From positions 108,719 to 172,718 of the forward strand of contig CAZJVD010000001.1 of the NCBI GenBank assembly GCA_964549505.1: a stretch of 64,000 nucleotides of DNA, read 5' to 3'. Shown piece after piece: positions 15,112-50,948 of this stretch (position 1 is the first letter of the stretch; every line of letters starts with the position of its first letter). Origin of the DNA: an uncultured Oligoflexia bacterium. Lineage in GTDB: Bacteria > Bdellovibrionota > UBA1018 > CAZJVD01. The notes beneath the pieces were generated by a model. The model was not told where the DNA came from, ran no database searches, and saw only the letters and a program-made list of their open reading frames with translations. Made by a program: the position numbers and the translations under genes.

Positions 15112-15201
15112 ACAAATCTCCACACCTTCTCAACAATTCCATCTTAGACGCTTCATATTTTGTAAACTTGTTCGATATATAATCGTAAATACTTAGTTTT
15201 T

Positions 15202-17573: not shown

Positions 17574-17717
17574 ACGTAGGTTCTCCTTACGCTTCAATTA
17601 TAAGAGATGGTTGTGGTGCCATGCGGGAGGGCATGTTGAGAAATCTCTACAATCGGGACACAGCCAACTGACAGCGGGGTTGTAAACTAGAAAAGAAAAC
17701 AGGAAAGGAGGCCGGAC

Positions 17718-18444: not shown

Positions 18445-18893
18445 GTCGTGAGTTCTGTCGACTGATGAGTGGGAAGTGCCGTCGCTGAAAACCAGTAGTC
18501 CAAAACAACCGTCATCTTTCTCTTAAACTCCTCAAAGTCGACGGCCTTCTGGATGTACGAGTTCGCGTATGATTCGTACGCCCGAAAAATGTCTCGCCAA
18601 AATCCCGAACTACTCATGACGACCACAGGAATCACTTTCAACGTCGGGTCCGCTTTGATCTCATCCAAAATCTCGAAACCATTGCGGCCAGGTAGATTGA
18701 TATCCAACAGAATCAGACCGGGAAGTGGCTGATGGTCAGCCTTCAAGGTCTGTAAGTATGAAAGAGCACTCTGTCCGTTCTTTTCGATCGTGAGTCGAAG
18801 ATCCGCACGAGAATCCAATAGAATCCTCACGAGCTCCACGTCGGCATCGTCGTCTTCGATCAAGAGGACTTCAACTACTCCACTCTTCTTCAT
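18441..18893 (-). CDS. Single-domain response regulator (REC)
   Basis: VLLIEDDDADVEL...LILLDINLPGRNG...VVVMSSS canonical CheY-like receiver. Confidence 0.8.
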   Translation of the reverse strand: MKKSGVVEVLLIEDDDADVELVRILLDSRADLRLTIEKNGQSALSYLQTLKADHQPLPGLILLDINLPGRNGFEILDEIKADPTLKVIPVVVMSSSGFWRDIFRAYESYANSYIQKAVDFEEFKRKMTVVLDYWFSATALPTHQSTELTT

Positions 18894-19990: not shown

Positions 19991-20005
19991 ATTCTCGACT
20001 CGCTT

Positions 20006-20359
20006 TCACGCCGAGATATCAATGGATCGAATCAAAATACCGGTTTCAATGGGTTGAAGATGGAGTTCAAACCAACCGTGCCCTTCCTCGAACTCAAAGC
20101 GATTCTCCATCGAGGCAGTCGTGTTGGTCCGCATACAATTGAGCATCGTCTTATAAAAGTCTGTTTGCTCCGTGCCAGGATAAACATCGTTCATTTGGCG
20201 TCCAACCAAGTCCTCGACCGTCTTATGTCCGTGTCGCGCGGCCGTCTTGTTAACATAGATATACTGACCCGTCGGACTGACGACCTGAATCCCTTCGAGC
20301 ATGTCATCGAAGATGGAGCGAAAGAATTCTTCGCGTTCGTAGAACGGCTTCTCGATCAA
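20006..20359 (-). CDS. Stand-alone PAS sensor domain protein
   Basis: 117 aa PAS-like fold pattern (FRSIFDDMLEGIQVVSPTGQYIYVNKTAARHGHK). Its 3' end overlaps the downstream hybrid kinase by 4 nt. Confidence 0.5.
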   Translation of the reverse strand: MIEKPFYEREEFFRSIFDDMLEGIQVVSPTGQYIYVNKTAARHGHKTVEDLVGRQMNDVYPGTEQTDFYKTMLNCMRTNTTASMENRFEFEEGHGWFELHLQPIETGILIRSIDISA

Positions 20360-21864
20360 ACTGCAATCCTCGCATCAATCGTACCGAGTACCTGATCGAG
20401 AACCGTCTTAGCGTCGAGCGGTTTCTCGAATGTCAGTCGCTCACCTGGACTCATCTGATCGATCTTCTGTAGAACGGCCGAAGTGAACAGACCGGAGATG
20501 AACGCGAGTGTTGGTGATCCATCTTGCTTTCGCACTAACTCCGCGAGTTCGAGGCCGCTGAGACCGGGCATACGAATATCAAAGATCACGGCATCAAAGC
20601 GCTCAACCAATAGACGCTCTTTTGCTTTCATGGGATCGCTTTCGACAATCGCCTCGTGACCACGTTCTCGGGCTTCGTCGGCAAAAATCTGCAAAATCTC
20701 CTCCTCGTCATCGACAACGAGGATCCGGTACGTCGCTTGCGTTCCACGTTTATGTTCCGTGGGAAGCCGAATCCGAAACTGTGTGTTTGGATGGTCATCT
20801 GCAAGCTGCAGCGATCCCCCATAGGACTCAACGATTCGGCTCGAGAGATGAAGCCCGATTCCCATCCCATGACTTTTTGTGGTGAAAGACTTTTTAAACA
20901 TTTTGTTTCGGGTTTCAGGATCCGTAACGACGCCACTGTCCGTGATCACAATCTCTATTTCCTTGGAGTCACGACTTATTTCGATACGAATCCAGCGCTG
21001 GTCGAGACTGCTGATCGCATCGCAGGCATTGCCGATTAAGTTCACGAGAACCTGCGAGAGTTCAATCGCGTTACAACAGAGCACGCCGACCTCTTTCTCC
21101 TGCAGTTCAATCGTCGAACCGGATTTGCCGATCCGATCGGCACAGAGAGAGATCGCTTCCTTAACCAAACTCAAGACGTTAACGTCTTCGTAGATCGGCA
21201 CATTCAGATTGCCGTGTCTTTTCTTGAGAGCGGATTTGATGTCCACAATTCGTGTGACCATCTTCGAGGCTGTTTCCGCGCATTCTCCAATCTTCACGAC
21301 GTCTACTTTCTCCGCTCGCAACAGACGATCAATCACCGCCATTTTCGCTTGAATAATAGTGAGGGGATTGTTGATTTCATGACTGACGGTACTGAGCATT
21401 TCTTCCATAGCAGCAAGTTTCAACATGGCACTTAACTCTCGCTGCTGTCGTAAGACCAACTTTTCATTACGACGCTGCTCGACAGCGTACCGAATCGAGC
21501 GATCGAGAAGATGAGGATTGATCTCATCTTTGACTAAGAAGTCAGAGGCACCGGCGTGCAAGGACTCGATGTCGGCTTTTGAGTCACCTCGTCCGGTCAG
21601 AACAATCGTTGCCGGTGGACACTGTTGCTGCTTCAAAAGTTTCAACAACTCGAGACCACGGTGCTGACCCAAATAATAGTCGATCAAGACCACGTCACAA
21701 CGAAGGGGTCCGGCTAGAATGCGTCGTTCGGCATCCTCATAAGTCTGGATCCACTCCGTCTCATACTGAGAGGAGTCACAGAGCTCAAGATACTCACGCG
21801 TGAGCATGAGATCGGACTCGGAGTCCTCAATAAGTAAAACATGAAAGTACGGCACACGACCCAT
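20356..21864 (-). CDS. Hybrid histidine kinase (REC - HisKA - HATPase_c - REC)
   Basis: N-terminal receiver (VLLIEDSESD...VVLIDYYLG). H-box VSHEINNPLTI. HATPase (DSGVVTDPE, GMGIGLHLSSRIVESYGGSL). C-terminal receiver (ILVVDDEEE...VIFDIRMPGLSG). Confidence 0.85.
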   Translation of the reverse strand: MGRVPYFHVLLIEDSESDLMLTREYLELCDSSQYETEWIQTYEDAERRILAGPLRCDVVLIDYYLGQHRGLELLKLLKQQQCPPATIVLTGRGDSKADIESLHAGASDFLVKDEINPHLLDRSIRYAVEQRRNEKLVLRQQRELSAMLKLAAMEEMLSTVSHEINNPLTIIQAKMAVIDRLLRAEKVDVVKIGECAETASKMVTRIVDIKSALKKRHGNLNVPIYEDVNVLSLVKEAISLCADRIGKSGSTIELQEKEVGVLCCNAIELSQVLVNLIGNACDAISSLDQRWIRIEISRDSKEIEIVITDSGVVTDPETRNKMFKKSFTTKSHGMGIGLHLSSRIVESYGGSLQLADDHPNTQFRIRLPTEHKRGTQATYRILVVDDEEEILQIFADEARERGHEAIVESDPMKAKERLLVERFDAVIFDIRMPGLSGLELAELVRKQDGSPTLAFISGLFTSAVLQKIDQMSPGERLTFEKPLDAKTVLDQVLGTIDARIAV

Positions 21865-23126: not shown

Positions 23127-23960
23127 CTACAGAAGCGACAGCGCTTGCTTGGGAGCCGAGTTGGCTTGACCCAAGATAGCGATGCTAGCGGACTGGAGAA
23201 TATTGCTCTTCACCAGATTCGCTGTTTCCTCCGCAAGATCTGCATCCGCGATACGCGAACGAGCGTGCGAGAGGTTCTCAGTCGCCGTCGAAATATTTTT
23301 TGTCGTTGAGACAAGACGATTCTGCATCGCTCCTAGGCGAGCGCGAGCTGCGTTGACAACGTCCATCGCTGCATCCAGCTTGCCTAGCGAATCGCGAGCG
23401 TCGTCAACAGATAGCGTGCCCAACGCATCGACACCTAAGGCGCCAGTGCGGACATCGTTTTCTGCAGCGTCGAACACGATACGATCTGCTTCTGTCGCCT
23501 GAGTGCCGACTTGAAACTCAAGTTGGCCCTTCACAGCTTCAGCATTGAGCAGAGGCGTGCCGTTGAAGTTCGTGACGTTCGAGATACGATCGATCTCTTG
23601 AACGAGACTCTGAAACTCGGCATTAAGAAAACTGCGCTCTTTGTCTCCGACTGTATCCGAAGCACCTTGAATCGATAGCTCACGCAGGCGAATCAAAATG
23701 TTCGAGATCTCCGTCATTCCGCCTTCAGCAACCTGAACGAACGAAATACCATCGTTCGCGTTCCGCTCAGCCTGCTTGAGGGATCGGATTTGAGCTCGCA
23801 TGTTTTCGGAAATTGAAAGGCCAGCAGCATCGTCTGCAGCGGATGTGATCCGGTCGCCGGATGACAGCCGAGAGTAATGCTTTTGCTGATCTTCAGCATT
23901 GTGCTTGAGAACTTTTTGCGCCGATTCGGACGCAACGTTCGTCGCTATTCTTAAGCCCAT
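23127..23960 (-). CDS. Flagellin (short type, about 277 aa)
   Basis: Conserved N-terminal MGLRIATNVASESAQKVLKHNAEDQQKHYSRLSSGDRITSAADDAAGLSISENMRAQIRSLKQAERNANDGISFVQVAEGG. Conserved C-terminal ...LAEETANLVKSNILQSASIAILGQANSAPKQALSLL. Confidence 0.9.
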   Translation of the reverse strand: MGLRIATNVASESAQKVLKHNAEDQQKHYSRLSSGDRITSAADDAAGLSISENMRAQIRSLKQAERNANDGISFVQVAEGGMTEISNILIRLRELSIQGASDTVGDKERSFLNAEFQSLVQEIDRISNVTNFNGTPLLNAEAVKGQLEFQVGTQATEADRIVFDAAENDVRTGALGVDALGTLSVDDARDSLGKLDAAMDVVNAARARLGAMQNRLVSTTKNISTATENLSHARSRIADADLAEETANLVKSNILQSASIAILGQANSAPKQALSLL

Positions 23961-24139
23961 GGTGGGAATCCTCCGTTATTGGGTTAAGCCAAGGCCCCAC
24001 ACAAGACCGACCTTCTCAGTCTTGTTTTCATGGACCTGGTTAAATTGTCTATCGCCTTAGATCTTAATGGCTTGGCAACCAGTTCAGATCTTTAGCGACA
24101 CCCATCTTGTCGGAGGAACGTGCTAATACTTTAGTTTTT

Positions 24140-24180
24140 TAATAAGGAATTATGGGGGCGCCGGAGCACCCCCATAATGC
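24140..24180 (-). terminator. Rho-independent terminator of flagellin gene 2
   Basis: On the minus strand: TTATGGGGG-TGCTCCGGCG-CCCCCATAA perfect 9-bp stem, followed by ATTCCTTATTAAAAAACTA. Confidence 0.55.
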
Positions 24181-24197
24181 CGTTTCAAAACGGTAGT

Positions 24198-25031
24198 TTA
24201 GCCCAGAAGACTGAGGGCCAGTTTCGAATTGTGATTTGCCTGGCCGAGGACCGCAACGGACGAACTCGAAAGGATATTATCCTTCGTCAGCGCCGTAGCG
24301 ACTTCTGCGACGTCAGCATCCGCAATTCGGCTTTTCGCAGCTGACAAGTTTTCATCGTAAACTTGCAAGTTGCGAATCGTAGCGTCCAAACGATTTTGGT
24401 ACGCGCCGAGCTCGGAACGACTTTGCGAAAGCATCTTGATCGATTCATCAAGCTTGTTTAGATTTTCTTGTGACGCTTCTTTCGTCGCAACCGACAGGTC
24501 ACGAATTCCAAGCGTTTCCAAGTTTGACGACATCTTAGCCAAATCGATCGCGATTCGATCCTCAGTAGGAACGTTTCGAACACCGACTTGAACTTCGACT
24601 TGTTCTTGATTGCCAACCAGCAGCTTTTTCCCGTTAAATTCGGTCGAAACTGCAATGCGTTCGATTTCTTCACGAAGCTGGAAAACTTCCTTATCGATGA
24701 AGGAGCGCTCGCGGTCACCAATCGTATCGCTGGCGCCTTGGATCGAAAGCTCTCTCATCCGAATCAGAATGTTTCCGATTTCGCTCATTCCACCTTCAGC
24801 AGTCTGAATCAACGAAACGCCATCACCCGCGTTGCGCGCAGCTTGGCGCATCGAACGGATATCGGCATTCATGTTGGTTGAAATCGCCAAACCTGCCGCG
24901 TCGTCAGCGGATCGTACGATCCGGCTGCCGCTCGACAGTTTTTCCTGGCTCTTCTGAACGTTTTGAAAGTTCAAACCCGTGGCGCGTTGAGCGGCCATGG
25001 CTTGAACGTTCGTATTAATACGTAGTCCCAT
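24198..25031 (-). CDS. Flagellin (second paralogue, about 278 aa)
   Basis: MGLRINTNVQAMAAQRATGLNFQNVQKSQEKLSSGSRIVRSADDAAGLAIS... N-terminal D0/D1 and C-terminal ...ALTKDNILSSSSVAVLGQANHNSKLALSLLG. ATG at 25031 with a GGAG RBS. The ORF track adds 4 codons upstream. Confidence 0.9.
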   Translation of the reverse strand: MGLRINTNVQAMAAQRATGLNFQNVQKSQEKLSSGSRIVRSADDAAGLAISTNMNADIRSMRQAARNAGDGVSLIQTAEGGMSEIGNILIRMRELSIQGASDTIGDRERSFIDKEVFQLREEIERIAVSTEFNGKKLLVGNQEQVEVQVGVRNVPTEDRIAIDLAKMSSNLETLGIRDLSVATKEASQENLNKLDESIKMLSQSRSELGAYQNRLDATIRNLQVYDENLSAAKSRIADADVAEVATALTKDNILSSSSVAVLGQANHNSKLALSLLG

Positions 25032-25043
25032 ACCACACTCCAA

Positions 25044-25246: not shown

Positions 25247-26218
25247 TCATGGTTTTATTTTATTTTTAAGGTATAGAATAGCATCCTTTGGATTTTTTTT
25301 ACCCAATGCAATGCTCTTTATAAGACTAACTCCATCTTCCGAATCCAGAAGATGTTCTGCTTTTGTTCCGTATTTTTCAGTCAGGAATTCCACCACCTGC
25401 GACCGAATGAATGCCCGGTCCTTCCGCTCTCGCCCCCCACTCTTCTCAAGGTAACTCCAATGGTCAAGACAGGCCTTCACGACAGCTTCAACACCCTGAT
25501 CGCTCAACGCCTGCGTTCGCAACACGGGCGGAAGGAATCTGAGCTTTGAGTCTAGTTTCTCCAGGCCCACCATCTGCGCCACCTCGCTGGCAAGCTTGTC
25601 AGCCTCAGGACGATCAGACTTGTTGATCACGAAAACATCCGCAATCTCCATGAGCCCAGCCTTCATCACCTGAATGGAATCGCCACTCTCAGGCACCAGC
25701 ACGACCAAGACCGTGTGCGCGCAGTCGTGCACGTCGAGCTCGGTCTGACCGACTCCGGCTGTCTCAACAATAATCTTTCCAAAACCAGCAGAACCCAAGA
25801 CCCACAGAATCTCTTTCACGGCTCCCGACAAACCACCACGTTTGCCACGCGTTCCGAGCGAACGAATGAAAACCTTAGCGTCGCCTGCATGCGCTTGCAT
25901 GCGTATCCGGTCACCCAGAACAGCGCCCCCGGAAAACGGACTCGACGGATCCACAGCAAGAACTGCTACGCGCTCTCCTTGTTTCCGAAAACGTTCGATT
26001 AAACGATCCACCAAGGTCGACTTGCCCGCGCCGGGCGGACCTGTCACGCCGATGATCTGAGGCGTGCCGCGATCGCGAAAAATCTCGGGCAGAAGATCCA
26101 GAATATCGTCACTGCGGTTTTCCACGCGTGTGATGAGCCGCGCGAGCGCCAAGCGATCCCCACGTCGCACTTTGGAGATCATCGATTGGGAAGAAGATTT
26201 CGCCGGCATGAAGTTCAT
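25247..26218 (-). CDS. meaB: Methylmalonyl-CoA mutase-associated GTPase MeaB/ArgK (G3E family)
   Basis: GVTGPPGAGKSTLVDRL P-loop. Downstream segments include ETAGVGQTE and DVFVINKSDR. About 320 aa. Confidence 0.8.
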   Translation of the reverse strand: MNFMPAKSSSQSMISKVRRGDRLALARLITRVENRSDDILDLLPEIFRDRGTPQIIGVTGPPGAGKSTLVDRLIERFRKQGERVAVLAVDPSSPFSGGAVLGDRIRMQAHAGDAKVFIRSLGTRGKRGGLSGAVKEILWVLGSAGFGKIIVETAGVGQTELDVHDCAHTVLVVLVPESGDSIQVMKAGLMEIADVFVINKSDRPEADKLASEVAQMVGLEKLDSKLRFLPPVLRTQALSDQGVEAVVKACLDHWSYLEKSGGRERKDRAFIRSQVVEFLTEKYGTKAEHLLDSEDGVSLIKSIALGKKNPKDAILYLKNKIKP

Positions 26219-38937: not shown

Positions 38938-39474
38938 CTATTCCGATGCGGACCGAATCTGTGATGCCAGTTCAGCAAGCTCGCGCTTATCCGAAGCCAG
39001 TCGATCAAGCTTTCCAGCGACTTCTTCGAGCTTCGTTCGAGTCTGCTCCTTGCGCGCACGAATGTCGGCGAGCAAATCATTGAAATCGTCAGCGAGTTCT
39101 TGAAAGTGATCGGATTTTCGAAATGTTCCGGTCGACTCGTAGTTTCCTGTTTTTGCGGTTTCAATGAACTTGCGAAGTTTGTAAATGGGTCCAGCAATCT
39201 TGTGGGACATGAAAAGGCTGATCAGAAAGATCACGCCCATGAACACGACATGCAGAAGAATCAGAAGACGTAAGAACTCGGACTTGACCGAACGAAGTGT
39301 CTCCACATCGATGTTTGGCGTCGAACTGCGCGCAAACGCTATGAAGTATTCGAAAAGCGTGTGCGTGATCATTGGATAAACTGCACTCAGGGCAAGAATC
39401 CACGAGACGACAAAAAAGGAATACTTGATCTGGAACCCGCGGTTGACCAGGAGCACATTGCGGCGTTGGCGCAT
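38938..39474 (-). CDS. Membrane protein with two TM helices, HAMP-like linker and C-terminal coiled coil
   Basis: TM1 FFVVSWILALSAVYPMI and TM2 LLILLHVVFMGVIFLISLF. Followed by AGPIYKLRKFIETAKTGNY (HAMP-like amphipathic helix) and a heptad-rich tail. Confidence 0.5.
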   Translation of the reverse strand: MRQRRNVLLVNRGFQIKYSFFVVSWILALSAVYPMITHTLFEYFIAFARSSTPNIDVETLRSVKSEFLRLLILLHVVFMGVIFLISLFMSHKIAGPIYKLRKFIETAKTGNYESTGTFRKSDHFQELADDFNDLLADIRARKEQTRTKLEEVAGKLDRLASDKRELAELASQIRSASE

Positions 39475-39486
39475 AGGGTTAGTGTA

Positions 39487-39762
39487 TTACAGTTGAATGG
39501 TGTCGACAACACCCACGACGACGGCGTGCAACGGAAACGCCGACTCGGGTGTTTTCGACGCTACTTGGCGTGCCCCAGTGCCTTCCATAAGAATCAATAC
39601 TTTGTCGCCCGGGCCGGCATTCACCGTATCGAGCGCGATCAGTTCGCGAGCCCCCACTTGCTCAAAACCCGGATCGAGCTCCACACAGAGGTACGAACCC
39701 GGCGGTAACGACTCAAGTCGTGCTGTGGCAACTACGCGTTTTGTGACGTTACCCAACAGCAT
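39487..39762 (-). CDS. Bacterial microcompartment vertex protein BMC-P (EutN/CcmL/PduN family)
   Basis: MLLGNVTKRVVATARLESLPPGSYLCVELDPG...LHAVVVGVVDTIQL, the typical roughly 90 aa EutN_CcmL pattern. ATG at 39762 with a GGGGA RBS. The ORF-track start at 39801 would overlap the upstream BMC-P. Confidence 0.75.
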   Translation of the reverse strand: MLLGNVTKRVVATARLESLPPGSYLCVELDPGFEQVGARELIALDTVNAGPGDKVLILMEGTGARQVASKTPESAFPLHAVVVGVVDTIQL

Positions 39763-40033
39763 CGATAATCCCCGTAATCGCAGCGTCGACCGGAAAACCA
39801 TTTTCTACGCTAGCACCCTCACGACCGCGGTGAAGCGCCATCGAAGCTTCCCGTTTTGAGATCCATTGAACGAAATCACCCGTTCGTGCACCGATATCGT
39901 CCACGGCAATCACCGGATCTGCAGTCGGTTTCCCCAATGAATCGGTCGGAACGATCACTTTGAGGGCAACACCTCGAAGACTCTCAGTCTTCTGAGTCGC
40001 CACGACGGATCCTCGAACAACTCCAAAGTACAC
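39749..40033 (-). CDS. Bacterial microcompartment vertex protein BMC-P (EutN/CcmL/PduN family)
   Basis: MYFGVVRGSVVATQKTESLRGVALKVIVPTD...VDAAITGIIDAVG. Pentamer-family signature throughout. Confidence 0.8.
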   Translation of the reverse strand: MYFGVVRGSVVATQKTESLRGVALKVIVPTDSLGKPTADPVIAVDDIGARTGDFVQWISKREASMALHRGREGASVENGFPVDAAITGIIDAVG

Positions 40034-40042
40034 ACCAGCTCC

Positions 40043-40651
40043 TTACAAAAACTCGAGCGCTTCCGGCATCGGCCGAGCAATTTTTTCAATGCGCACGCGA
40101 CTCTGAAGCACCGTCAACTCATGATCCGCTGCTTCGATCGCAGCTTCGACAGCCTCAAGATCGCCGTGAATAACAAAAAACGCTTTGCCGCCGATTCCAT
40201 GTCCGAGCCGCAGCCTCACGAGATCCACGTCGGCCGCTTTAAGTGCGGCATCGCAAGCCACAATGGCAGCACCCAGCGTAGCGGACTCAACGATACCCAG
40301 CGACGATTCTGCCGGCGCCGTGCGGACAACGCCGTCCGCCTGGGTGAATGCACCAAGAAACGGTTCCAACCTAGGATGAACATTCGGTATCAGGATCTTC
40401 TGTAAAATATCGTCAGCACCCAGTTCGACTGCTTCTTTGAAACTCTCTTGAACTTCGGCAACGCCACCGAAAAAAACAAGGACATGCTTGCCAGACGACA
40501 CCGGGGTCGACGACAAAATCGTGACCGGCGCTTTTTTTACAACCTTGTCGGTGAGCACGAGACCGCTGGCAATGCTGCGAGTTTCGATCAGCGCAAGTGC
40601 CGGACTGGTGCCGAAGGCTCGTGCCGTCACCCGTGCCATCACCCGTGCCAT
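40043..40651 (-). CDS. Tandem-BMC-domain shell protein BMC-T (HO-type BMC-T1-like)
   Basis: Two BMC-fold halves: ALALIETRSIASGLVLTDKVVKKAPVTILSSTPVSSGKHVLVFFGGVAEVQESFKEAVELG and SLGIVESATLGAAIVACDAALKAADVDLVRLRLGHGIGGKAFFVIHGDLEAVEAAIEAA. Resembles my recollection of H. ochraceum BMC-T1. Confidence 0.65.
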   Translation of the reverse strand: MARVMARVTARAFGTSPALALIETRSIASGLVLTDKVVKKAPVTILSSTPVSSGKHVLVFFGGVAEVQESFKEAVELGADDILQKILIPNVHPRLEPFLGAFTQADGVVRTAPAESSLGIVESATLGAAIVACDAALKAADVDLVRLRLGHGIGGKAFFVIHGDLEAVEAAIEAADHELTVLQSRVRIEKIARPMPEALEFL

Positions 40652-42210
40652 CAGACGATCCTAAAGTGGTCTTTGAGTGTGCAGCGACGAATACGCGAGA
40701 ACGTCCGACACGTTGTCAGACCCTCTCCCGTGGGCGAGGCAATCGTAAACGATGTGTACCCCTCGCCCCCAAAGCCCAGCCCCGCAAAGTTCGGGGCGTT
40801 TTTAACGAAAATCGAAGTGTTGATCTCAACAGCCATTTTATGAAGATTGTCGATGTTCTTGCTGTACATCACAGCCGTGTGACCGTTGCCATGCTCAACC
40901 CGCTTTGCGGCAGCAATCGCCTCGTCAACAGTCTTCGTTCTGAAGATCGGAATAAGCGGCATGAGAAGCTCCGCCTGCACAAAGGGGTGATCTTCTTCGA
41001 CCTCACAGATCACAAGCCTGGGGTCACCGGAAACCCGCTTCCCAATCGCAGCCAAAAGAACCGAGGCGTTCTTGCCCACAAACTCTTTCGTCGGAAAAAA
41101 GCCACACGTCCCTGCTTCGCCCTTCGGCGTTCCATGCCGCTCACCTTGAATGACGATCTTCTCAAGTTCGCGCGTCTCCCGCGCCGTCAGAAGAACCGCG
41201 CCGTTTCTCTGGAGACGCTCCACCAACTCATCCGCAATGCTTGAAACAGCGACGACTTCTTTCTCGTCGGTACAGATGATGTTGTTGTCAAACGAAGCGC
41301 CCGCGACAATTCCGCGCGCCGCTTGTTCGAGATCGGCGGTCTCATCCACCACAACTGGGGGATTGCCGGGACCTCCAGCGATTACTTTTTTTCCGCTCGC
41401 CATCGCGACGCGAACGACAGCGGGACCACCGGTCACCACGAGGAGTCGTACGCCAGGATGCTTCATGAGCGCTTGGGCACTCTCCATCGTCGGCTCTTCA
41501 ACAGCCGTCAGTACTCCGCGCGGACCGCCCGACGCCACGATCACATGATCCATGAGTTCCATCGCACGAAACGAAACTTTCTTAGCGGATGGGTGCGGGT
41601 TGAAAACAACTGCGTTTCCAGCCGAAATCATCGAAATGCCGTTATTGATGACCGTCTCACTTGGATTGGTCGTCGGCGTGATCGAACCGATCACACCATA
41701 GGGAGCATATTCAGTGAGTGTGAGACCTTCATCGCCGGTGACCACAGCCGCATCTAAGAACTCCGGACCAGGCGTCTTATTGATGACGAGTAAATTCTTT
41801 TTGATCTTATCTTCGAGACGACCGAGGCCTGTTTCCTCAACGGCCATTCTGGAAAGCTCCTCGGCATGCTTGCGAAGAACAGCGCGAATATCCGAAACAA
41901 TCGCTTTACGCTTTTCGAGCGGCAGCGCAACCCAAGCGGGTTGTGCCTTTCGAGCAGCATCGACAGCGGCATCGAGCGTCGCGTGGGTAACAGTCGAAGA
42001 CGTCGTGCGATTGGAAACCGCCACGGTTGCCGTTTTAAGAACGCGCGGTCCAAAACTACTCGACGGTCCGGATTCGCTCGTGCGCGATGGCATAGAAAAT
42101 GGCGACTTCGGTAACCCGACCCCTGGCTGCGCCATCAGCCGAGCCGCGACGGCCTCGGCCAGCGCGTCTACGTCACGAGCAATCTCTTCGGGACCGTACT
42201 CGGTACTCAT
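40651..42210 (-). CDS. CoA-acylating aldehyde dehydrogenase (EutE/PduP-type, BMC-associated) with N-terminal encapsulation-peptide-like extension
   Basis: 519 aa ALDH-superfamily pattern ([42 protein letters not shown] with catalytic Cys in IICT). Embedded among shell genes. N-terminal amphipathic helix [19 protein letters not shown] plus a roughly 50 aa S/P/G-rich linker. Confidence 0.85.
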
Positions 42211-42497
42211 TTACGAAACGTCGTCTCCCCACCCATTTCAACGGTGTCGACAATTGCCATGATGACCGCATCGACCGGTGTATTTTTCGTGGCATCAGTC
42301 TGGCGTGCGCTAGAACCCGAACAGTAGAGGACGACTTCCCCTACGCCAGCACCTACGGTGTCGACTGCCACAACGAACGAACCCTTTTTAGGAACACCCG
42401 TCATGTCCGTCGGCTCGACCAAAAGAAGTGTGGTGCCGGAGAGTCGTGGGTCTTTTCGGGACGCAACGACCGTTCCCGTGACTCGACCTAAATTCAT
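42207..42497 (-). CDS. Bacterial microcompartment vertex protein BMC-P (EutN/CcmL/PduN family)
   Basis: [29 protein letters not shown]...[13 protein letters not shown] EutN_CcmL pattern. Its stop/start overlaps the AldDH start. Confidence 0.8.
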
Positions 42498-42506
42498 AAA
42501 ATCAGC

Positions 42507-42851
42507 TTAGTTATCGAGCTGAGAACCGAGTGCAGGCTTCTTGCGGCCTGAGGCAGCCACGACTTCACCGCGACCGAGCGGCAACACCGCATCGACATTC
42601 GCATGAGGACGCGGAATCACGTGGACGCTGACAAGCTCGCCGACTTTTTCAGCGGCACGCTGACCAGCTTCGACCGCAGCTTTTACAGCCGCGACGTCAC
42701 CACGAACGACCGCGGTCACATAACCACCACCGATTTTTTCGTAGCGAACGATCTCAACACGCGCGGCTTTCACCATCGCGTCCGAAGCTTCGACAAGTCC
42801 CACAAACCCTTTTGTTTCAATCATTCCGAGAGCGTCAGTCATAACGTTCAC
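42507..42851 (-). CDS. Hexameric shell protein BMC-H (PduA/CcmK-like) with about 25 aa C-terminal extension
   Basis: [77 protein letters not shown] is a canonical single BMC (Pfam00936) domain. Tail [30 protein letters not shown]. Confidence 0.85.
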
Positions 42852-43477
42852 TTCTTCCTTTCATCAATCCCCGTAAGATTTTCGATCGCACGCATCGCTG
42901 CCTTCGCGGCTTCATCGATGTCCGCCTCAGGTCCCATCAACGTCAAACGTCCGAACGCACCAAACGCACGAATATCGACCAGCGTAACTTGCGCGGCCTT
43001 TTCCGCTTCGTTCGCAGCGTAGACGATGTAACCGGCCGGATCGGTCTCTAAGATGAACATGCTATAGCCCGGCAAAATCATCGAACCACGTCGGCCTTGA
43101 CGGTTGATGACAACAGCATGGTCAGGTGTCACAGCGCGAATGGTTTCGTTCCAGGCCACTCGGCACTTCACGCGCTGCTTTTCTTCGAGCTCGAGACTGC
43201 GCAACACGGCGGCGCCGGCCTGCAGTACCTCTCCTTGATCTTCGTGGTGAACTTCCATCGTACCGAAAGCGCGCTCAACGACTTGCTGACCAAGTCGGAC
43301 GCGTGTGGCTTTCAAAGCGACATCGGTCACGCGGTGGATCGCCATACCCGGCGCGATTTCCACCCAAAGAACTGCGTCTTCGGGAATCGGCAGAAACCCT
43401 TGCGATGTCGTGCCGAGAAACTCTGCAAGTTGCGGTTGGAGTGAATCAATAAAAACGTATGTTCGAAGGTTAATCAC
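42848..43477 (-). CDS. Tandem-BMC-domain shell protein BMC-T (HO-type BMC-T2/T3-like)
   Basis: N-terminus [22 protein letters not shown]... closely matches my recollection of the H. ochraceum BMC-T2/T3 N-termini (LRTYIFLDALQPQLA). Two BMC-like halves ([30 protein letters not shown]... and [46 protein letters not shown]). Confidence 0.6.
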
Positions 43478-43622
43478 AAATCAAAATCCCCAACGGGGTG
43501 TAACGCCTTGGTGTGACTGAGTCAAGCAACGTCATGGTCATGAGATAGCGCGTCATTCGCGTCGCACGGTCGCATCGCAAGGTCTCTTTTGTGGTTTCTT
43601 TTGTGGCATAATCGCAGAACCC

Positions 43623-45159: not shown

Positions 45160-46239
45160 TTAGTACTTTATCGTGTCTTTGTGTTTCTCAACGATCTTCT
45201 GAATACTACCGACGTCGAACACGATGTTCGGATAGTTGTCGACCGCGACTTCTCGTTTTTCCTGTGTCGGCAACCGAGCGTTGAACTCGAAACTGACGAG
45301 ATTTTCCTTGTCGCTTCCATACATCACCATTCGTCGACCCAAGGGATGCACCACATGATACGAGCGCAACGCGACGACGCCACTTACCTTGCCAGACGCA
45401 AGATCAATATCGAGTTTACGGATATCTTTGAGACGTTCGTTTCCGTTAACAAGGCCGTCCAGGTAACTCATCACGTCTTCACGTAGAGCACCGATCGTTA
45501 ACAGGTTAAACGGCGGATCGATCTTGGGACTTTCTGGCTTGACCTCTCCCAATGCCCCGATCGACTGCGTTCCATTATTTTCGAGCAGCTGCTGCTGCGT
45601 CTTCTCCAAAGCGGCATCAAGGTTACGCTTCTGAGGTTCTGAGGAAGTTTCTTGTCGTACGGCCGTCAATCGATCGAGGCGCCGCTGGAGGGCCGCTCCG
45701 GACTCCGAAACAAGCGTTGCAGGATCTTTAACCTCTGCGGGGGGCCTTGCCATCGCACCATAGTCCGTCAAGAGCGTGCTGATTTTCATAACACCGGCCT
45801 GAGCTCCTTCGGTCTGATAAATAGGCCTTTGGCTCTGCGAAACGAGAAACCCGAGTGCGTCCTCGTTAAAAAAACCGTCCTTCGCCTGCACATCGACTCC
45901 GTTGTCGAGAAAAGCCCGAAGCAATCGGGTGTCGACATTTCCTTCGGGCGTCACCGTATCGAGAGTGAGTCGAACCGCTTGATGTAGGAAGGGAACTGTC
46001 CACTGCGGGTCGTACGTCGGGGCCGGCGAGAAGACCCCATTAAGGTGGCCTCCAGCACCCCTTTCAACGGTGCTCGTGATCTCCTGAATCCGTTCATCCA
46101 TCGAAACGCGCGGATCCAAAAGAATGCGCGACAGATACTGGTTCCAAGCATTCGGAACCGGTGTCTCAATCTGCTGAGAAACGGAAGCAAACGGAAGAAA
46201 CAAAACAATGCCAATAAAAGCTGAACGTAGGACAGACAT
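45160..46239 (-). CDS. Secreted hypothetical protein (360 aa)
   Basis: ATG at 46239 with an AAGAGG RBS and signal peptide MSVLRSAFIGIVLFLPFASVSQQ. The 454-codon track ORF would run through the tRNA gene and is trimmed. Confidence 0.4.
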   Translation of the reverse strand: MSVLRSAFIGIVLFLPFASVSQQIETPVPNAWNQYLSRILLDPRVSMDERIQEITSTVERGAGGHLNGVFSPAPTYDPQWTVPFLHQAVRLTLDTVTPEGNVDTRLLRAFLDNGVDVQAKDGFFNEDALGFLVSQSQRPIYQTEGAQAGVMKISTLLTDYGAMARPPAEVKDPATLVSESGAALQRRLDRLTAVRQETSSEPQKRNLDAALEKTQQQLLENNGTQSIGALGEVKPESPKIDPPFNLLTIGALREDVMSYLDGLVNGNERLKDIRKLDIDLASGKVSGVVALRSYHVVHPLGRRMVMYGSDKENLVSFEFNARLPTQEKREVAVDNYPNIVFDVGSIQKIVEKHKDTIKY

Positions 46240-46358
46240 GACAACCTCTTTCCTTAGATACGGTCTACCGCTCTTTTGAGTAGCGAACCCGATTGAGCTG
46301 CAAGACATGTTCCCGGGTAGACAAAAGACATCAGCTTTTGTAAGGTATTCAAAACTGT

Positions 46359-46433
46359 TCAGGAGTAGCTCAGTGGTAGAGCAACCGGCTGTTAACCGGT
46401 TGGTCGGGGGTTCGAATCCCTCCTCCTGAGCCA
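46359..46433 (+). tRNA. tRNA-Asn (anticodon GTT)
   Basis: Cloverleaf read by hand. Acceptor TCAGGAG/CTCCTGA. D-arm TAGCTCAGTGGTAGAGCA. Anticodon stem ACCGG/CCGGT with loop CTGTTAA. T-arm GGGGG-TTCGAAT-CCCTC. Discriminator G plus CCA. Confidence 0.85.
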
Positions 46434-46472
46434 TATCTTTTTTATCCGGACCCGCGACCCGTAGCACCCCAT

Positions 46473-47933
46473 ATGCATGCACCGAATCCGAACTCCACGC
46501 TTCTTGATTCACCGGATCTTTCACTTGAAATCAGCTCTGAGAATCTCGAAAGTCAAACTCAGCAGACTCTAAAATACGTTTCTACTCTTTTTAAGACTCT
46601 CAGTTCTCAAAAGGTCAGCTTCCCTTCCGATTTCAAAACTCTCCAAAAACTCTTTTCCGGAAAAATCCCTAGCAAGGGAACATCCTTTGACTCCCTTTTA
46701 ACGATGATTTTCGAAAAGGCTGCGCCCACTGGGATCAACATTACGAGTCCTGGTTATATGGCTTACATGCCGATTGGATGCATTTCCGAGTCTGTCATTG
46801 CGGAATTCATAACGGCAGCGATCAATCGATGGCCTGGATATTACGAGTTTGCTCCAGCGTTTATTGAAATCGAGAAATCCGTCGTTAGATGGCTTTGCGA
46901 AATGATGGGGATGCCTGAAGGGTCCTCGGGAATTCTTACTTCGGGAGGTTCGTTGGCAAATTTTGCTGCCGTCCACACCGCGAGAGTGATTAAACTGCCA
47001 GAAAATTTTTCGTCGGGTGTGCTTTATGCTTCAGACCAAACTCACCACTCCATCACAAGAGCCGCTCGCCTTGCAGGATTTCCAAAAGCAAACGTTCGAA
47101 CGGTTCCCACTGACAGCGCGTGCCGTATTGAGATCGAAGCATTAAGGAAGATGATTCGAACCGATCGAACGAACGGGCTTATGCCCTTTCTTCTGGTGGC
47201 GAACGCGGGAACTATTAATACGGGAGCCGTCGATGACCTTGAGGCTCTGTCTAAAGTTTGCGCGGAAGAAAACATGTGGTTTCATATCGACGCTGCTTGG
47301 GCCGGAACATTTCGGCTTACGGATCACGGGAAAAAGCTGATGCGTGGTACTGAAAACGCTGATTCGATTACGATTGATCCCCATAAGGCGCTTTATATTC
47401 CCTTCGGTACCGGTGCACTTCTTGTAAAGGATGTTCGAACACTAAAGAAAGCTCATACAACCGATGCCGTCTATCTTCCCGACGATCAGGAAGACCTCGA
47501 GATCATTAATCCTTCTCATATTAGCCCCGAACTGAGTCGAAACCTTCGAGGTCTTCAGACCTGGCTTCCCATTAAGGTTCACGGCATCACACCGTTTAAA
47601 AACAACATGGAAGAAAAGCTTCAGCTGACTCTTTGGGCTACCGAGCAACTCAGGAAGATTCCTCGGTTGTCGATCGTCACTGAACCACAACTCGCTATTG
47701 TTACGTTTACGTACGACGGGAAAAATATCCCGCAGGATAAGACTGACGAGATTAACAAAGCCATTATCGCTAAAGTAAATAGCGACGGCCGCGTTTTGAT
47801 TTCAGGAACGACCATCAAGAATCGGTTCGTTATTCGTCTCGTACCGTTTGGACTTCGAACACATAAGCCATCCGTTCAACTCGCTCTGGACTTGCTACGA
47901 AAGGCTTTTGAGGGGATTGAATCAAATGGCTGA
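46473..47933 (+). CDS. Pyridoxal-phosphate-dependent group II decarboxylase (aromatic-L-amino-acid / glutamate decarboxylase family)
   Basis: 486 aa. ...ILTSGGSLANFAAVHTAR..., DAAWAG, and the PLP lysine context SITIDPHKALYIPFGTGALLV typical of Pyridoxal_deC. Confidence 0.8.
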   Translation: MHAPNPNSTLLDSPDLSLEISSENLESQTQQTLKYVSTLFKTLSSQKVSFPSDFKTLQKLFSGKIPSKGTSFDSLLTMIFEKAAPTGINITSPGYMAYMPIGCISESVIAEFITAAINRWPGYYEFAPAFIEIEKSVVRWLCEMMGMPEGSSGILTSGGSLANFAAVHTARVIKLPENFSSGVLYASDQTHHSITRAARLAGFPKANVRTVPTDSACRIEIEALRKMIRTDRTNGLMPFLLVANAGTINTGAVDDLEALSKVCAEENMWFHIDAAWAGTFRLTDHGKKLMRGTENADSITIDPHKALYIPFGTGALLVKDVRTLKKAHTTDAVYLPDDQEDLEIINPSHISPELSRNLRGLQTWLPIKVHGITPFKNNMEEKLQLTLWATEQLRKIPRLSIVTEPQLAIVTFTYDGKNIPQDKTDEINKAIIAKVNSDGRVLISGTTIKNRFVIRLVPFGLRTHKPSVQLALDLLRKAFEGIESNG

Positions 47934-48528
47934 TAAGGTCATAGAAATTATTTCTGGCCCTAACGGAAGCGGCAAATCGACATTTGCCGAAACTCTTTTT
48001 TCTAAACGCATCACCAAAGACAAAAAAAACTATTTCATCAACCCGGATATTCTCGCGTCCGGGCTATCTTTTTCCAACAGTGAAGTCGCTGCGTTCCATG
48101 CTGGCCGCCTTATGCTTCAGTCCGTGAAGGAATTTGTAAGAAATGGTGAATCTTTTGCCTTTGAATCCACTCTTTCAGGAAAAACTTGGCTTAAATTTTT
48201 ACAAGCGGCAATTGGAACGGGTTACGAAATCAGAATCCATTTTATTTACCTAGATCGAGTCAGCGAAAATATTAAACGCGTAAAGAGCCGGGTCCAACAG
48301 GGCGGGCATTCGGTTCCGGTCGATGCCATTAGAAGACGCTATCCAAAATCTTTTTATAATTTTTGGAATAAGTATCGCCCCTTGGCTAAAGAATGGTTTA
48401 TTTTCAACAACTCCAATTCAAAACCCAAACTGATCCATTCGAATCGAACTTTTGATCTCTTAAAATTTTCAGAACAAGAAAGTTTTGTTCGACATTTCCT
48501 AAAGGGAAAGCAAAATGGCTCGGACTAA
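47926..48528 (+). CDS. P-loop kinase of the zeta-toxin / AAA_33 fold (about 200 aa)
   Basis: VIEIISGPNGSGKSTFAETLF Walker A, followed by the FINPDIL and ESTLSG segments expected in zeta-toxin-like kinases. The ATG at 47926 overlaps the decarboxylase stop as ATGGCTGA. Confidence 0.55.
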   Translation: MADKVIEIISGPNGSGKSTFAETLFSKRITKDKKNYFINPDILASGLSFSNSEVAAFHAGRLMLQSVKEFVRNGESFAFESTLSGKTWLKFLQAAIGTGYEIRIHFIYLDRVSENIKRVKSRVQQGGHSVPVDAIRRRYPKSFYNFWNKYRPLAKEWFIFNNSNSKPKLIHSNRTFDLLKFSEQESFVRHFLKGKQNGSD

Positions 48529-48691
48529 AATACCCAAGCTGTCTAAGGAGCTCCAGGAAACATTGAAAGAGTTCCCAAAAACAGTGGCACTCAAAAAAAA
48601 GCGCGGTCTCGCTCGCATTAAGTTTCGGGAAAAAACGTTTGGACCCTTGGTCAGAGAACTTGAAAAATATCTGAAGAAAGACCGAGAGTAA
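48515..48691 (+). CDS. Small basic hypothetical protein (58 aa), overlapped start with the upstream kinase gene
   Basis: MARTKIPKLSKELQETLKEFPKTVALKKKRGLARIKFREKTFGPLVRELEKYLKKDRE. Its ATG lies 11 nt before the kinase stop. Too short for the ORF track. No homology recognised. Confidence 0.25.
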   Translation: MARTKIPKLSKELQETLKEFPKTVALKKKRGLARIKFREKTFGPLVRELEKYLKKDRE

Positions 48692-48721
48692 CGCGAAAGC
48701 AGAAGCCGTGAGATCCCAGAT

Positions 48722-49663
48722 CTACTGTTGAATCGACAGGGTCTTTGTATCGATACTTAAACCATTGTCGGTCAGTTCTATAACTTCGGTTTTTCCCGAC
48801 TCGAGCAGCACTTCGATAACGGGATTGAACTTCACACGCTCGCCCACTAAGCCTGGCTCTCGGGCTTGTTTCGGCGACCGCTGAGATATTTTCACTACCG
48901 GTGATTCAAACTCCAGGGGATCGAATTCGCCCGCTCTTTCACCTGCAGTTACGTCAACCACTTTTATAGAGCTTCCCGTCCCCAACAACGCTACCAATTT
49001 ACCGTGTTTCGCAGTCAACAGTCCGTGAGGATCTATTTCATCAAAGCGAACCGTGACAGCAGTCGTAAGAGGCTGATCCAGTTGATAGGATGCCGTTTCT
49101 TTCAACTTGCCTAAGCGAACTTTCACGACTCTTAGTCCATCACGACTGAAAGCAAAAACATGCTCATTGGTTCGTGTAGTGGTCCCATCGTCACGTCTGT
49201 GACTCTCATGCCTAGACTCCAGAGCAAAAGCGGGCTGAGGAAAGGCAAAATTAGAATGAATTGAATACCCATGTTCTGTGACCTCATACAGGTAAACTCC
49301 ATCGCGTGTGGCGGCCACAACCGCTTGAACAGGAGCGTCGGTGATGCCGGTATCGGCACTAGACATCCTCTTGTCTGGATACATCGTTTGCACGTCGAAA
49401 TATAAGACAGGGGAATTAAAAGTTAGTGGGTGCACCCACGAGGAAGGGTTCACATTCGTTCGCTCGAAAGAAATTTCTAGATCACGTTCTTTCGCATGGA
49501 CAACGATTCGGTTCTTCTCGATGTACTTGAAAAAACGGAACTGCGTCCTCGTAGTAGTAAACTCTAACACCTTAGCGCCAGCCATCCCCGGAGCACATTC
49601 GAGCGCAGCCAATCCGGTATTAGGAAGCAAAACGAAACAGGCCAAAATAGCAAAAGTCCTCAT
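48722..49663 (-). CDS. Secreted hypothetical protein (313 aa)
   Basis: Signal peptide MRTFAILACFVLLPNTGLAA. Beta-rich. No motifs recognised. The local sequence looks more AT-rich than the flanks. Confidence 0.4.
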   Translation of the reverse strand: MRTFAILACFVLLPNTGLAALECAPGMAGAKVLEFTTTRTQFRFFKYIEKNRIVVHAKERDLEISFERTNVNPSSWVHPLTFNSPVLYFDVQTMYPDKRMSSADTGITDAPVQAVVAATRDGVYLYEVTEHGYSIHSNFAFPQPAFALESRHESHRRDDGTTTRTNEHVFAFSRDGLRVVKVRLGKLKETASYQLDQPLTTAVTVRFDEIDPHGLLTAKHGKLVALLGTGSSIKVVDVTAGERAGEFDPLEFESPVVKISQRSPKQAREPGLVGERVKFNPVIEVLLESGKTEVIELTDNGLSIDTKTLSIQQ

Positions 49664-49736
49664 GCAAGCCTCTTACAGTGGCGTAATGCTATAAGTCAAA
49701 TTTATTGGCGGTTTACACTACGCGAGCAAACGAACT

Positions 49737-50948
49737 CTACTTCTTCAAAGACTCTTCCAGCAGTCGAATCTTAGTTTCCGTGAGGGTGTCAGGCGACTGA
49801 ATCTGGCTCAAAAGAATTCCTTCATTCTTGAACCACTGGGAAATCTCGTCAACAGCGGTTCGTACCTTAGACATTTGGGTCTCAAGCGCAACGGCTCGAT
49901 TAGGGTCTTCTGAAGACTCAATCGAAACGAGATAAAAGGTCGCCTTTGATCCCTCGAGTTCGAAGCGACCCAAGCATGTGCTATCCACATTAGAATCAAA
50001 TTTTGGAAAGATATCTCTGTTCTTGTAAGCCGCTTCGACCTTAGCGGTAACATCGGCAGCCACCTGGGCTTCTGTCTCTCCCAACGATAAGAAAGTCTGG
50101 AACTCCTTGACCAACGCGCTGAGTGGTCCCACAGATCCCGGTGTGTTGAGCTCGGCGACAATCCGTTCCTTGGCACGGACTGCGGCCGCCCGGTAAGCCG
50201 GAAGTCGCGCAAGTTCACGATCATTGATCATTGCGTGAAAGGGCGACTCTTGGCGGGTGTATCGCTTGTTATGAAAATCATGCTGGACCAAACCAAAAAT
50301 GAATCCCGGATGTCGATCGAGCTGCTCGGTACCGCCTTCAAAAAAATCAGGTGGTAACAATACGATCTGTCGCTCGTCGTTGTATTCTCCGTTCCAAACG
50401 TACTCGCCGACATGGGGCTCGTTTCGGTCGTCCGTAGCAAATGCGATGTAGTAGTAAAACTGTGCCGACACCTCACACTTCCAAAACAGATCATCGGCCA
50501 TCTGGCAAAGCATATGAGGCGTAGGCGCCTTGCCTGCTTCAGCTAACTGGATCCAAGGATTTTTTCCATTTGTCCCAGTTTGCTCCGACATGGAACGCTC
50601 CCAATCCCGGATTGGTAGAATTCGCACCCTCACCCAGTCCGGATGTCTCTCAGTCGATACAACGATAGAGTAAATGCCTTTTGAATTGAGATACTTTGTA
50701 AGACCGTAAGCAGCATCCAATGCTTGTTTGCGGGACGGGCTCGCTTGCGCTGCTGACCCCACGAACCGGGCGTAGAACTCTTGGAATTTGGCCTTTCCGA
50801 TCACACCCTCAGCATCGATTTCTTTGAGTGCATCGGCTTCCTGCCCAAAAGCAGACAATGTGAGAACTGAAAACAGGGACACACCGGTTAAAAACAATCC
50901 GAGCTTAGACACAGCGATGCTTATAGCAAGGTTGACATTATTTAACAA
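49737..50948 (-). CDS. Secreted hypothetical protein (403 aa)
   Basis: N-terminal hydrophobic segment LGLFLTGVSLFSVLTLSAFGQ. No recognisable catalytic motif. Confidence 0.4.
   Translation of the reverse strand: MLNNVNLAISIAVSKLGLFLTGVSLFSVLTLSAFGQEADALKEIDAEGVIGKAKFQEFYARFVGSAAQASPSRKQALDAAYGLTKYLNSKGIYSIVVSTERHPDWVRVRILPIRDWERSMSEQTGTNGKNPWIQLAEAGKAPTPHMLCQMADDLFWKCEVSAQFYYYIAFATDDRNEPHVGEYVWNGEYNDERQIVLLPPDFFEGGTEQLDRHPGFIFGLVQHDFHNKRYTRQESPFHAMINDRELARLPAYRAAAVRAKERIVAELNTPGSVGPLSALVKEFQTFLSLGETEAQVAADVTAKVEAAYKNRDIFPKFDSNVDSTCLGRFELEGSKATFYLVSIESSEDPNRAVALETQMSKVRTAVDEISQWFKNEGILLSQIQSPDTLTETKIRLLEESLKK

Follow-up and report, generated by a model that had tools for sequence, protein, structure and literature searches.

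Among the catalogued types of bacterial microcompartment (BMC), the HO type provides the main structural and engineering model of a shell, and its native substrate is still not established. The HO type comprises one hexamer-forming protein (BMC-H), three pentamer-forming proteins (BMC-P), one single-layer tandem-domain trimer (BMC-Ts), and two double-stacking tandem-domain trimers (BMC-Tdp), with the main-locus Tdp falling in the CsoS1D clade and the satellite Tdp in the CcmP clade (PMC8217296). Its aldehyde dehydrogenase (AldDH) always bears an N-terminal encapsulation peptide and is closest to the AldDHs of types SPU5 and SPU7 (PMC8217296). Here, this type is compared with a compact microcompartment operon in a stretch of 64,000 nt (the window, with positions counted from its first letter) from the genome of an uncultured Oligoflexia bacterium.

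Two subtypes of HO have been described. Type I (30 loci, that of Haliangium ochraceum included) places two BMC-P genes in a satellite locus, and 24 of the 30 possess a satellite with a pfam00596 aldolase (PMC8217296). In the 11 loci of type II, the three BMC-P genes are 'in the same main operon', and the aldolase lies in the main locus of five (PMC8217296, Suppl. Data 2). Hosts are 'mostly Deltaproteobacteria'; four HO loci have EutL and EutBC satellites, some HO genomes encode pfam01791 enzymes with encapsulation peptides at distant sites, and both class II and DeoC-type aldolases are reported for HO genomes (PMC8217296). The function of HO 'remains enigmatic', and it is listed as one of the metabolosomes that have no obvious signature enzyme (PMC8217296). 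A full-text literature search returned no paper assigning a function to HO and none on microcompartments in Bdellovibrio-like organisms.

The operon in the window probably represents the complete main locus of a metabolosome of the HO type (subtype II), with an encapsulated AldDH and an aldehyde produced by an unlinked enzyme, of which an aldolase is the likeliest. That it specifies an HO-type metabolosome enclosing a CoA-acylating AldDH is very likely; that the aldehyde is supplied by an unlinked aldolase is a tentative proposal. The operon is real and intact and belongs to an already catalogued organelle type. Since its arrangement is that of the published HO type II, it is not a new kind of organelle, and an initial annotation, made from the sequence alone, was correct in finding the three vertex genes in one operon but not in treating this as something special. 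Its proposal of an uncharacterised organelle is supported as an interpretation but overstated the novelty, the lack of a signature enzyme in HO being an already stated problem.

Shell proteins and aldehyde dehydrogenase of the cassette

Seven co-directional open reading frames (ORFs) occupy positions 39487-43477 of the minus strand in the order BMC-Tdp, BMC-H, BMC-P1, AldDH, BMC-Ts, BMC-P2, BMC-P3. The gaps between successive genes (-4, 9, -4, -1, 9, and -14 nt) bear out the tight packing reported initially. All seven are intact, exceed the gathering scores of their own Pfam families—none of the shell ORFs failing to hit the BMC or EutN models—and are full length against the profiles. The cassette thus contains one BMC-H, two different tandem-domain BMC-T, three BMC-P (27%-38% identical in pairwise comparison), and one enzyme, the inventory first proposed. 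An independent assembly of run SRR8863434 contains the identical DNA.

The PDB matches of BMC-Tdp are, in order, 7dhq (5.2e-90), CsoS1D (3.5e-83, 281 bits), HO-5816, which is HO-T2 (1.7e-73, 250 bits), and CcmP (1.2e-58, 201 bits). A precomputed annotation of the SRR8863434 assembly places PF27545 (CsoS1D_N) on the identical gene, and the CcmP equivalog model gives 244 bits, short of its cut-off of 340. By these best matches the protein is a predicted double-stacking trimer of the CsoS1D/HO-T2 kind, in the clade that contains CsoS1D. BMC-H, with its KAAR and PRPH motifs, has HO-5815 as its best natural PDB match (3.9e-44), and a tblastn search with 12 BMC-H queries detected no second BMC-H in the 64 kb. 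The neighbouring BMC-P1 is most similar to the HO pentamer chain of 5V74 (3.1e-34) and, as judged from this match, is the counterpart of the HO main-locus pentamer. BMC-P2 shares 38% identity with BMC-P1 and is kept downstream of Ts in related loci; the adjacent BMC-P3 is 27%-36% identical to BMC-P2 and BMC-P1.

BMC-Ts finds its best PDB match in 5dih (HO-T1, Hoch_5812; 3.9e-30), and the two proteins have exactly the same pore motif, PVSSGKH. BMC-Ts possesses no pore cysteine, a serine occupying the position of the PduT-type Fe-S cysteine, and it scores 94.6 bits against the PduT equivalog model, for which the cut-off is 250. None of the shell proteins reaches the cut-off of a carboxysome, EUT, or PDU equivalog, those of EutM, EutN, and PduT included. 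For four products, HO-5816, HO-5815, the 5V74 pentamer, and HO-T1 are therefore the top or near-top matches, and the genes stand in the H. ochraceum order; the likeness to H. ochraceum suggested in the initial annotation proved sound.

The AldDH is the only enzyme of the operon. It scores 644.6 bits against the NCBIfam model NF011927 (cut-off 403) and matches 5jfl at 4.6e-130; the catalytic motif FDNNIIC aligns with FDNNLPC of the solved structure, and the catalytic Cys313 is kept (codon at 41272-41274). These matches assign it to the CoA-acylating AldDHs of the EutE/PduP class, as annotated at the outset. Residues 1-63 form an amphipathic helix (approximately residues 8-28) followed by a linker rich in proline and serine. 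The helix motif is conserved in 30 or more related AldDHs and the linker is variable, which is the usual anatomy of an encapsulation peptide, and the extension is predicted to be one. A hidden Markov model of the helix, searched against window ORFs of at least 100 aa, scored with the AldDH alone, albeit in a weak test (E 0.005).

No PduL, alcohol dehydrogenase, lyase, or regulator is found by Pfam among the seven genes, again in agreement with the first account. Beyond the operon, window ORFs of at least 150 aa were scanned with Pfam across the 64 kb, and tblastn queries drawn from the related loci (class II aldolase, DeoC, RpiB, TIM, ferredoxin, and every shell family) were run against the window. 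Neither approach detected a signature enzyme, PduL, alcohol dehydrogenase, PduS, or an extra shell gene, and RuBisCO and carbonic anhydrase families were not seen among the scanned ORFs. The locus does not cluster with PDU, EUT, or GRM. An identity as one of these three is excluded: EutBC, PduCDE, a glycyl-radical enzyme, a phosphotransacylase, and an alcohol dehydrogenase were not found among the scanned ORFs, and the EutM, EutN, and PduT models remain below cut-off. A carboxysome is excluded as well, with the CcmK, CcmL, CcmP, CsoS1, and CsoS4 equivalogs below cut-off and an AldDH as the cargo.

By homology to the solved HO shell, BMC-H hexamers would tile the facets, in which the HO-T1-like Ts and the CsoS1D-like Tdp would take some positions as pseudohexamers, the latter providing a large gated pore; the vertices would be closed by BMC-P pentamers, to which all three paralogues contribute. 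The AldDH would be drawn into the lumen by its N-terminal amphipathic helix and there convert a short-chain aldehyde, NAD+, and CoA to acyl-CoA and NADH, with the toxic aldehyde confined within the shell. The gene for the aldehyde-producing enzyme would lie at another site in the genome, its product reaching the lumen by an encapsulation peptide of its own, and cofactor recycling would have to rely on unlinked enzymes or on exchange through the Tdp pore.

Related loci and the source of the aldehyde

For comparison, the best 80 related loci were taken, one genome per species (GTDB representatives), with AldDHs 53%-72% identical to that of the window. Their ORFs were called, clustered, and labelled against the window genes, and representatives of conserved neighbour families were annotated with Pfam. 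The order Tdp-H-P-AldDH-Ts-P-P is widespread among the 80. A Bdellovibrionota group of 11 loci (the window, L001-L009, and L046) carries the labels Bdellovibrionia, Bacteriovoracia, and Bacteriovoracaceae, along with a few evidently mislabelled bins; the full order is present in each of its loci with a long enough contig, and the AldDH is the sole enzyme within 10 kb. An aldolase group of 19 loci, mostly from Myxococcota or 'proteobacterium' metagenome-assembled genomes (MAGs), has a pfam00596 class II aldolase after the last BMC-P. Loci of Polyangiales and Myxococcales form a type I-like group consisting of Tdp-H-P-AldDH-Ts alone, and 17 SPU-like loci (Chloroflexota, Holophagae, Spirochaetes, and others) contain DeoC and often RpiB or TIM.

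Taxonomic titles among the relatives are of uneven quality. L007 is titled candidate division WWE3, and MAGs with Myxococcota-like HO loci (L012, L013, L015, L017, and L029) are titled Enterobacterales, Bifidobacterium breve, or Klebsiella pneumoniae; all six appear to be bins that are contaminated or wrongly named. One homologue of the AldDH bears the label 'Bdellovibrionota bacterium FG-2'.

The first-domain pore motif of BMC-Ts parts the locus groups cleanly (window and L001-L080). P(V/I)SSGKH is found in most Bdellovibrionota-group loci and in H. ochraceum HO-T1, NL(V/I)EPG(K/R) in the aldolase-bearing loci, and GTVQPGK in those with DeoC/RpiB; these differences could reflect different metabolites crossing the Ts pore. 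In a neighbour-joining tree of 81 AldDH sequences, which has no support values and no labelled Hoch_5813, the window AldDH lies in a Bdellovibrionota clade, with the type I-like clade next, then the aldolase-bearing clade, and the DeoC loci apart. The window AldDH is 65.6% identical within its own group and 56%-59% identical to every group outside it.

Placement in HO type II is favoured by the catalogue definition of that subtype, which matches the content of the cassette (PMC8217296), and by the class II aldolase (19 loci) or DeoC/RpiB (17 loci) found beside the same shell set. The catalogue also types as HO several low-GC 'unclassified Deltaproteobacteria' whose Tdp/Ts locus-tag spacing fits the window order (PMC8217296); these may be the same lineage under an older taxonomy. 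Its tree files contain two Bdellovibrionales genomes: GWA2_49_15, typed SPU5, and RIFOXYD1_FULL_53_11, marked 'incomplete (omitted)', in which the main-locus Tdp is a CsoS1D-like 'outlier' and a satellite EutL-type gene is present (PMC8217296).

Several observations weigh against this placement or against its aldolase component. The identities to outside groups are nearly equal and the tree carries no support, and hence the assignment to HO depends chiefly on gene content and on what Ts and Tdp match; BMC-Tdp, moreover, scores higher with CsoS1D than with HO-T2. The one clearly Bdellovibrionales locus of similar sort in the catalogue was left untyped as 'incomplete' (PMC8217296). For HO, a CcmP-type Tdp would also be expected at a satellite locus, but tblastn detected none in the 64 kb. 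The same 64 kb contain no aldolase, DeoC, RpiB, TIM, PduL, alcohol dehydrogenase, EutBC, PduS, or extra shell gene, and relatives of the Bdellovibrionota group have none of these within 10 kb of the cassette; a signature enzyme encoded in trans therefore remains unobserved. The 120 listed matches to an HO type II aldolase query are unnamed or belong to Myxococcota and Proteobacteria, and the lack of a Bdellovibrionota label among them is uninformative, most being unnamed.

Under the HO type II reading, the likeliest source of the aldehyde would be a class II aldolase, releasing lactaldehyde or glycolaldehyde, or a DeoC-type aldolase, releasing acetaldehyde; aldolases come first because both types accompany the same shell set in sister loci. 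A satellite EutBC/EutL module ranks second and the lack of any dedicated enzyme third.

In the second of these, unlinked EutBC and an EutL-type BMC-Tsp would convert ethanolamine, for instance from prey phospholipid, to acetaldehyde, which the AldDH would turn into acetyl-CoA. This is unlikely, notwithstanding the EutL and EutBC satellites of the four HO loci (PMC8217296), the satellite EutL of RIFOXYD1_FULL_53_11 (whose main-locus Tdp is a CsoS1D-like outlier, as is that of the window), and the membership of the AldDH in the EutE/PduP subfamily. Several homologues in the AldDH clade are named 'EutE' in their sources, but that is an automatic name. Neither tblastn nor Pfam located EutL, EutB, or EutC in the window, the flanks of the Bdellovibrionota-group loci hold no extra BMC-domain gene, Rfam found no B12 or other riboswitch, and the link between the source genome and RIFOXYD1_FULL_53_11 is unverified.

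Sugar-phosphate use of the SPU5 kind, in which an unlinked DeoC-type aldolase would cleave deoxyribose-5-phosphate from degraded DNA to supply acetaldehyde, is improbable to a similar degree. HO AldDHs are nearest to those of SPU5 and SPU7, GWA2_49_15 is typed SPU5, and distant pfam01791 enzymes with encapsulation peptides occur in some HO genomes (PMC8217296); DeoC, with or without RpiB and TIM, stands beside the same shell gene order in 17 related loci, and scavenging of nucleic acids would suit predatory bacteria. DeoC and RpiB are nonetheless missing from the window and from the Bdellovibrionota-group flanks. The window Ts, moreover, has a serine at the SPU5 pore-cysteine position, the HO-T1 motif, and no PduS, and the AldDHs of the DeoC-bearing loci branch as a clade of their own in the neighbour-joining tree.

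Slightly less probable again is a stand-alone organelle into which free short-chain aldehydes diffuse to be trapped as acyl-CoA, NAD+ and CoA being exchanged through the gated Tdp pore. The Bdellovibrionota cassette would then be a distinct, self-sufficient subtype of shell and AldDH with no aldehyde-producing partner anywhere in the genome, trapping, for example, aldehydes from prey digestion—a doubtful proposition that, if true, would make it the first metabolosome to work without an encapsulated signature enzyme and would suggest a role for the long-enigmatic HO shell. A self-contained seven-gene cassette is indeed found in about ten Bdellovibrionota/Bacteriovoracia genomes without a conserved enzyme neighbour, and the large-pore Tdp is retained. 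The targeting helix of the AldDH was detected in no other window protein, but the helix search is weak, the AldDH itself reaching only E 0.005. Characterised metabolosomes, however, all encapsulate the aldehyde-producing step, which is the rationale of the shell (PMC8217296), sister loci with the same shell set carry aldolases, and failure to find a gene in 64 kb carries little weight for a genome several Mb in size.

That the operon is what remains of a cassette gained by horizontal transfer, now decaying or without function, is very improbable. Its presence or absence at one conserved chromosomal position and its slightly higher GC content might point that way, but the seven ORFs are intact and full length against their profiles, the catalytic cysteine and targeting helix are retained, and order and content are kept among relatives whose proteins are only approximately 50%-80% identical, which indicates purifying selection.

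Chromosomal setting of the cassette

The features of the cassette are collected in Table 1. The BMC-P3 reading frame can be extended to 39487-39801 (104 aa, ATG at 39801), with the EutN_CcmL domain starting at residue 14; the shorter coordinates are likely the correct ones, as the independent gene call on the identical SRR8863434 DNA gives 91 aa. That call gives BMC-H as 111 aa. The GC content of the cassette is 0.558, compared with 0.522 for the window.

Table 1. Features of the microcompartment cassette (positions in the 64,000-nt window)
Feature	Position	Strand	Basis
BMC-Tdp, first gene of the operon, 209 aa, GTG start	42848..43477	-	Pfam BMC 3.8e-08
BMC-H, sole hexamer gene, 114 aa from GTG	42507..42851	-	Pfam BMC 1.2e-30
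BMC-P1, vertex pentamer, 96 aa	42207..42497	-	Pfam EutN_CcmL 2.7e-30
CoA-acylating AldDH, 519 aa, predicted lumen cargo	40651..42210	-	Pfam Aldedh 1.3e-46
AldDH N-terminal extension, residues 1-63, predicted encapsulation peptide	42022..42210	-	Outside the catalytic-domain alignment
BMC-Ts, HO-T1-type single-layer tandem-domain trimer, 202 aa	40043..40651	-	Two Pfam BMC domains, 1.1e-32
BMC-P2, second vertex-pentamer paralogue, 94 aa	39749..40033	-	Pfam EutN_CcmL 5.3e-20
BMC-P3, third vertex-pentamer paralogue, last gene of the cassette, 91 aa	39487..39762	-	Pfam EutN_CcmL 4.9e-14
Intergenic region between operon and divergent SBP_bac_5 gene, 145 bp	43478..43622	.	ORF coordinates

Upstream of the operon lies a divergently transcribed SBP_bac_5 gene, and the region between the two presumably holds the operon promoter. 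No consensus sigma-70 site was found in this region. In the promoter and terminator scan, promoter-like sites (3, against a shuffled mean of 3.7) and terminator-like sites (7, against 11.7) show no excess, and no minus-strand terminator was returned inside the operon. Rfam detected no riboswitch, B12 or other, and no other family upstream of the operon. The SBP_bac_5 gene was considered as a linked transporter and rejected: it is adjacent in the four closest relatives only, which fits inherited synteny.

Downstream, in order, are genes for a 178-aa HAMP-like protein, DUF1284, and an SLT lytic transglycosylase, then prs, pth, and ychF. The 178-aa protein (38938-39474) has two transmembrane segments and a HAMP-like region, its gene starts 12 nt past BMC-P3, and it follows the cassette in all nine loci that extend that far. 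A search for HAMP-like homologues, three of which were examined in their own contigs, showed the ferredoxin/HAMP/DUF1284/SLT...ychF-pth-prs block without BMC genes in L082, L083, L085, and L086 (a Bacteriovorax sp. MAG and three metagenome contigs), with a ParA-like ATPase, or TrmO, Fic, and an integrase, upstream. The HAMP-like gene was accordingly rejected as an eighth member of the operon. Since the block occurs without BMC genes, the seven genes are a discrete cassette beside a housekeeping block, to which the downstream HAMP, DUF1284, and SLT genes belong, and genomes either have or lack the cassette at a single conserved site in the chromosome.

The segment 36655-39474 is kept across Bacteriovoracia-like genomes with or without the BMC cassette, the HAMP-like protein being approximately 180 aa long. 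The ferredoxin, of the thioredoxin-like 2Fe-2S kind, is absent in the window and present in four BMC-bearing relatives, and prs-pth-ychF has the same orientation as the cassette in the window and is inverted in relatives. In two BMC-less relatives, a phage-type integrase lies upstream of the ferredoxin/HAMP block (L085 3650-4897; L086 901-6376), the latter region also containing primase-polymerase and terminase-like genes; the chromosomal site upstream of the block seems to accept inserted DNA.

A tRNA gene (46359-46430, plus strand; Rfam, 74 bits) sits within the 5' part of the mechanically called ORF 45160-46524 on the minus strand, the real start of which is therefore probably further downstream. 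GC content falls to 0.455-0.478 just past the tRNA (46400-50000), and this stretch may be a tRNA-adjacent island. It encodes a PLP-dependent decarboxylase (46473-47933), an overlapping zeta-toxin/AAA_33-like kinase (47848-48528), and two ORFs without a Pfam match (48722-49663 and 49737-50948). The decarboxylase was rejected as a signature enzyme: it is beside the cassette in no relative and lies in the low-GC stretch past the tRNA.

Elsewhere in the window, FliD is encoded at 11329-12726, and a dense cluster of histidine kinases, some of them hybrid, and response regulators (13596-21864) is followed by two tandem flagellin genes (23127-25043). A MeaB-type GTPase (methylmalonyl-CoA mutase chaperone; 25247-26218, minus strand) has no adjacent mutase gene. 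It hints at the handling of propionyl-CoA or methylmalonyl-CoA by the organism, which would be relevant if the AldDH made propionyl-CoA.

Comparison with described microcompartment types

The locus adds a well-delimited, minimal seven-gene version of HO in Bdellovibrionota/Bacteriovoracia, which are barely represented in the catalogue (one genome typed SPU5 and one 'incomplete'; PMC8217296). Itself, it neither settles the HO substrate nor reveals a new kind of system, and the window alone does not make the substrate question more testable. A discrete cassette that is either present or absent, together with the HO-T1 pore motif, helps comparative searches for the signature enzyme, for example by phylogenetic profiling.

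SPU loci of all subtypes are characterised by pfam01791 (DeoC/DERA) and usually pfam02502 (RpiB), neither of which tblastn found in the window. SPU5 resembles the cassette in its AldDH, which bears an N-terminal encapsulation peptide (predicted in the window) and is closest to that of HO, and SPU5 occurs in a Bdellovibrionales genome. The Ts of SPU5, however, is associated with PduS and has a pore cysteine, and its locus usually contains pfam01791, pfam00596, or both, whereas the window has no PduS, pore cysteine, DeoC, or aldolase. An SPU5 identity was thus set aside on the serine at the PduT cysteine position, the lack of PduS, and the PduT score of 94.6 against 250 bits.

MIC7, an incomplete-core metabolosome of Latescibacteria/Eisenbacteria, likewise has an AldDH with an N-terminal encapsulation peptide as sole enzyme and a BMC-P triplet, but it possesses two types of BMC-H, and its Tdp is encoded at a satellite. 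Among the relatives, the three loci from Eisenbacteria (L049, L055, and L059) have no Tdp and a distant AldDH clade, and two of the three have two BMC-H genes. MIC7 was set aside on its two BMC-H types, its satellite Tdp, and the distant AldDH clade.

The H. ochraceum HO microcompartment (type I; Hoch_5812-5816 with satellites; structures 5V74, 5DIH, and 5DJB) shares with the cassette the order Tdp-H-P-AldDH-Ts, the identical Ts pore motif PVSSGKH, and an AldDH as the sole main-locus enzyme, and HO proteins are the best PDB matches of the window H, P, and Ts. It differs in the position of the other two BMC-P genes, which are in a satellite there and directly after Ts here, and in the class II aldolase that the type I satellite often carries, none being found in the window.

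HO type II differs from the cassette in its hosts, here Bdellovibrionota/Bacteriovoracia, and in its satellite CcmP-type Tdp, not seen in the 64 kb of the window. The window Tdp, furthermore, is nearer to CsoS1D than to HO-T2, and the AldDHs of its group form a clade of their own at 56%-59% identity to all other groups. In composition the two correspond: in both, the main operon encodes a single BMC-H and the full set of three BMC-P, the Tdp is of the CsoS1D clade, the one Ts has no PduS partner, and the core enzyme is an AldDH with an N-terminal encapsulation peptide (here predicted); approximately half of the type II loci also have no aldolase in the main locus.

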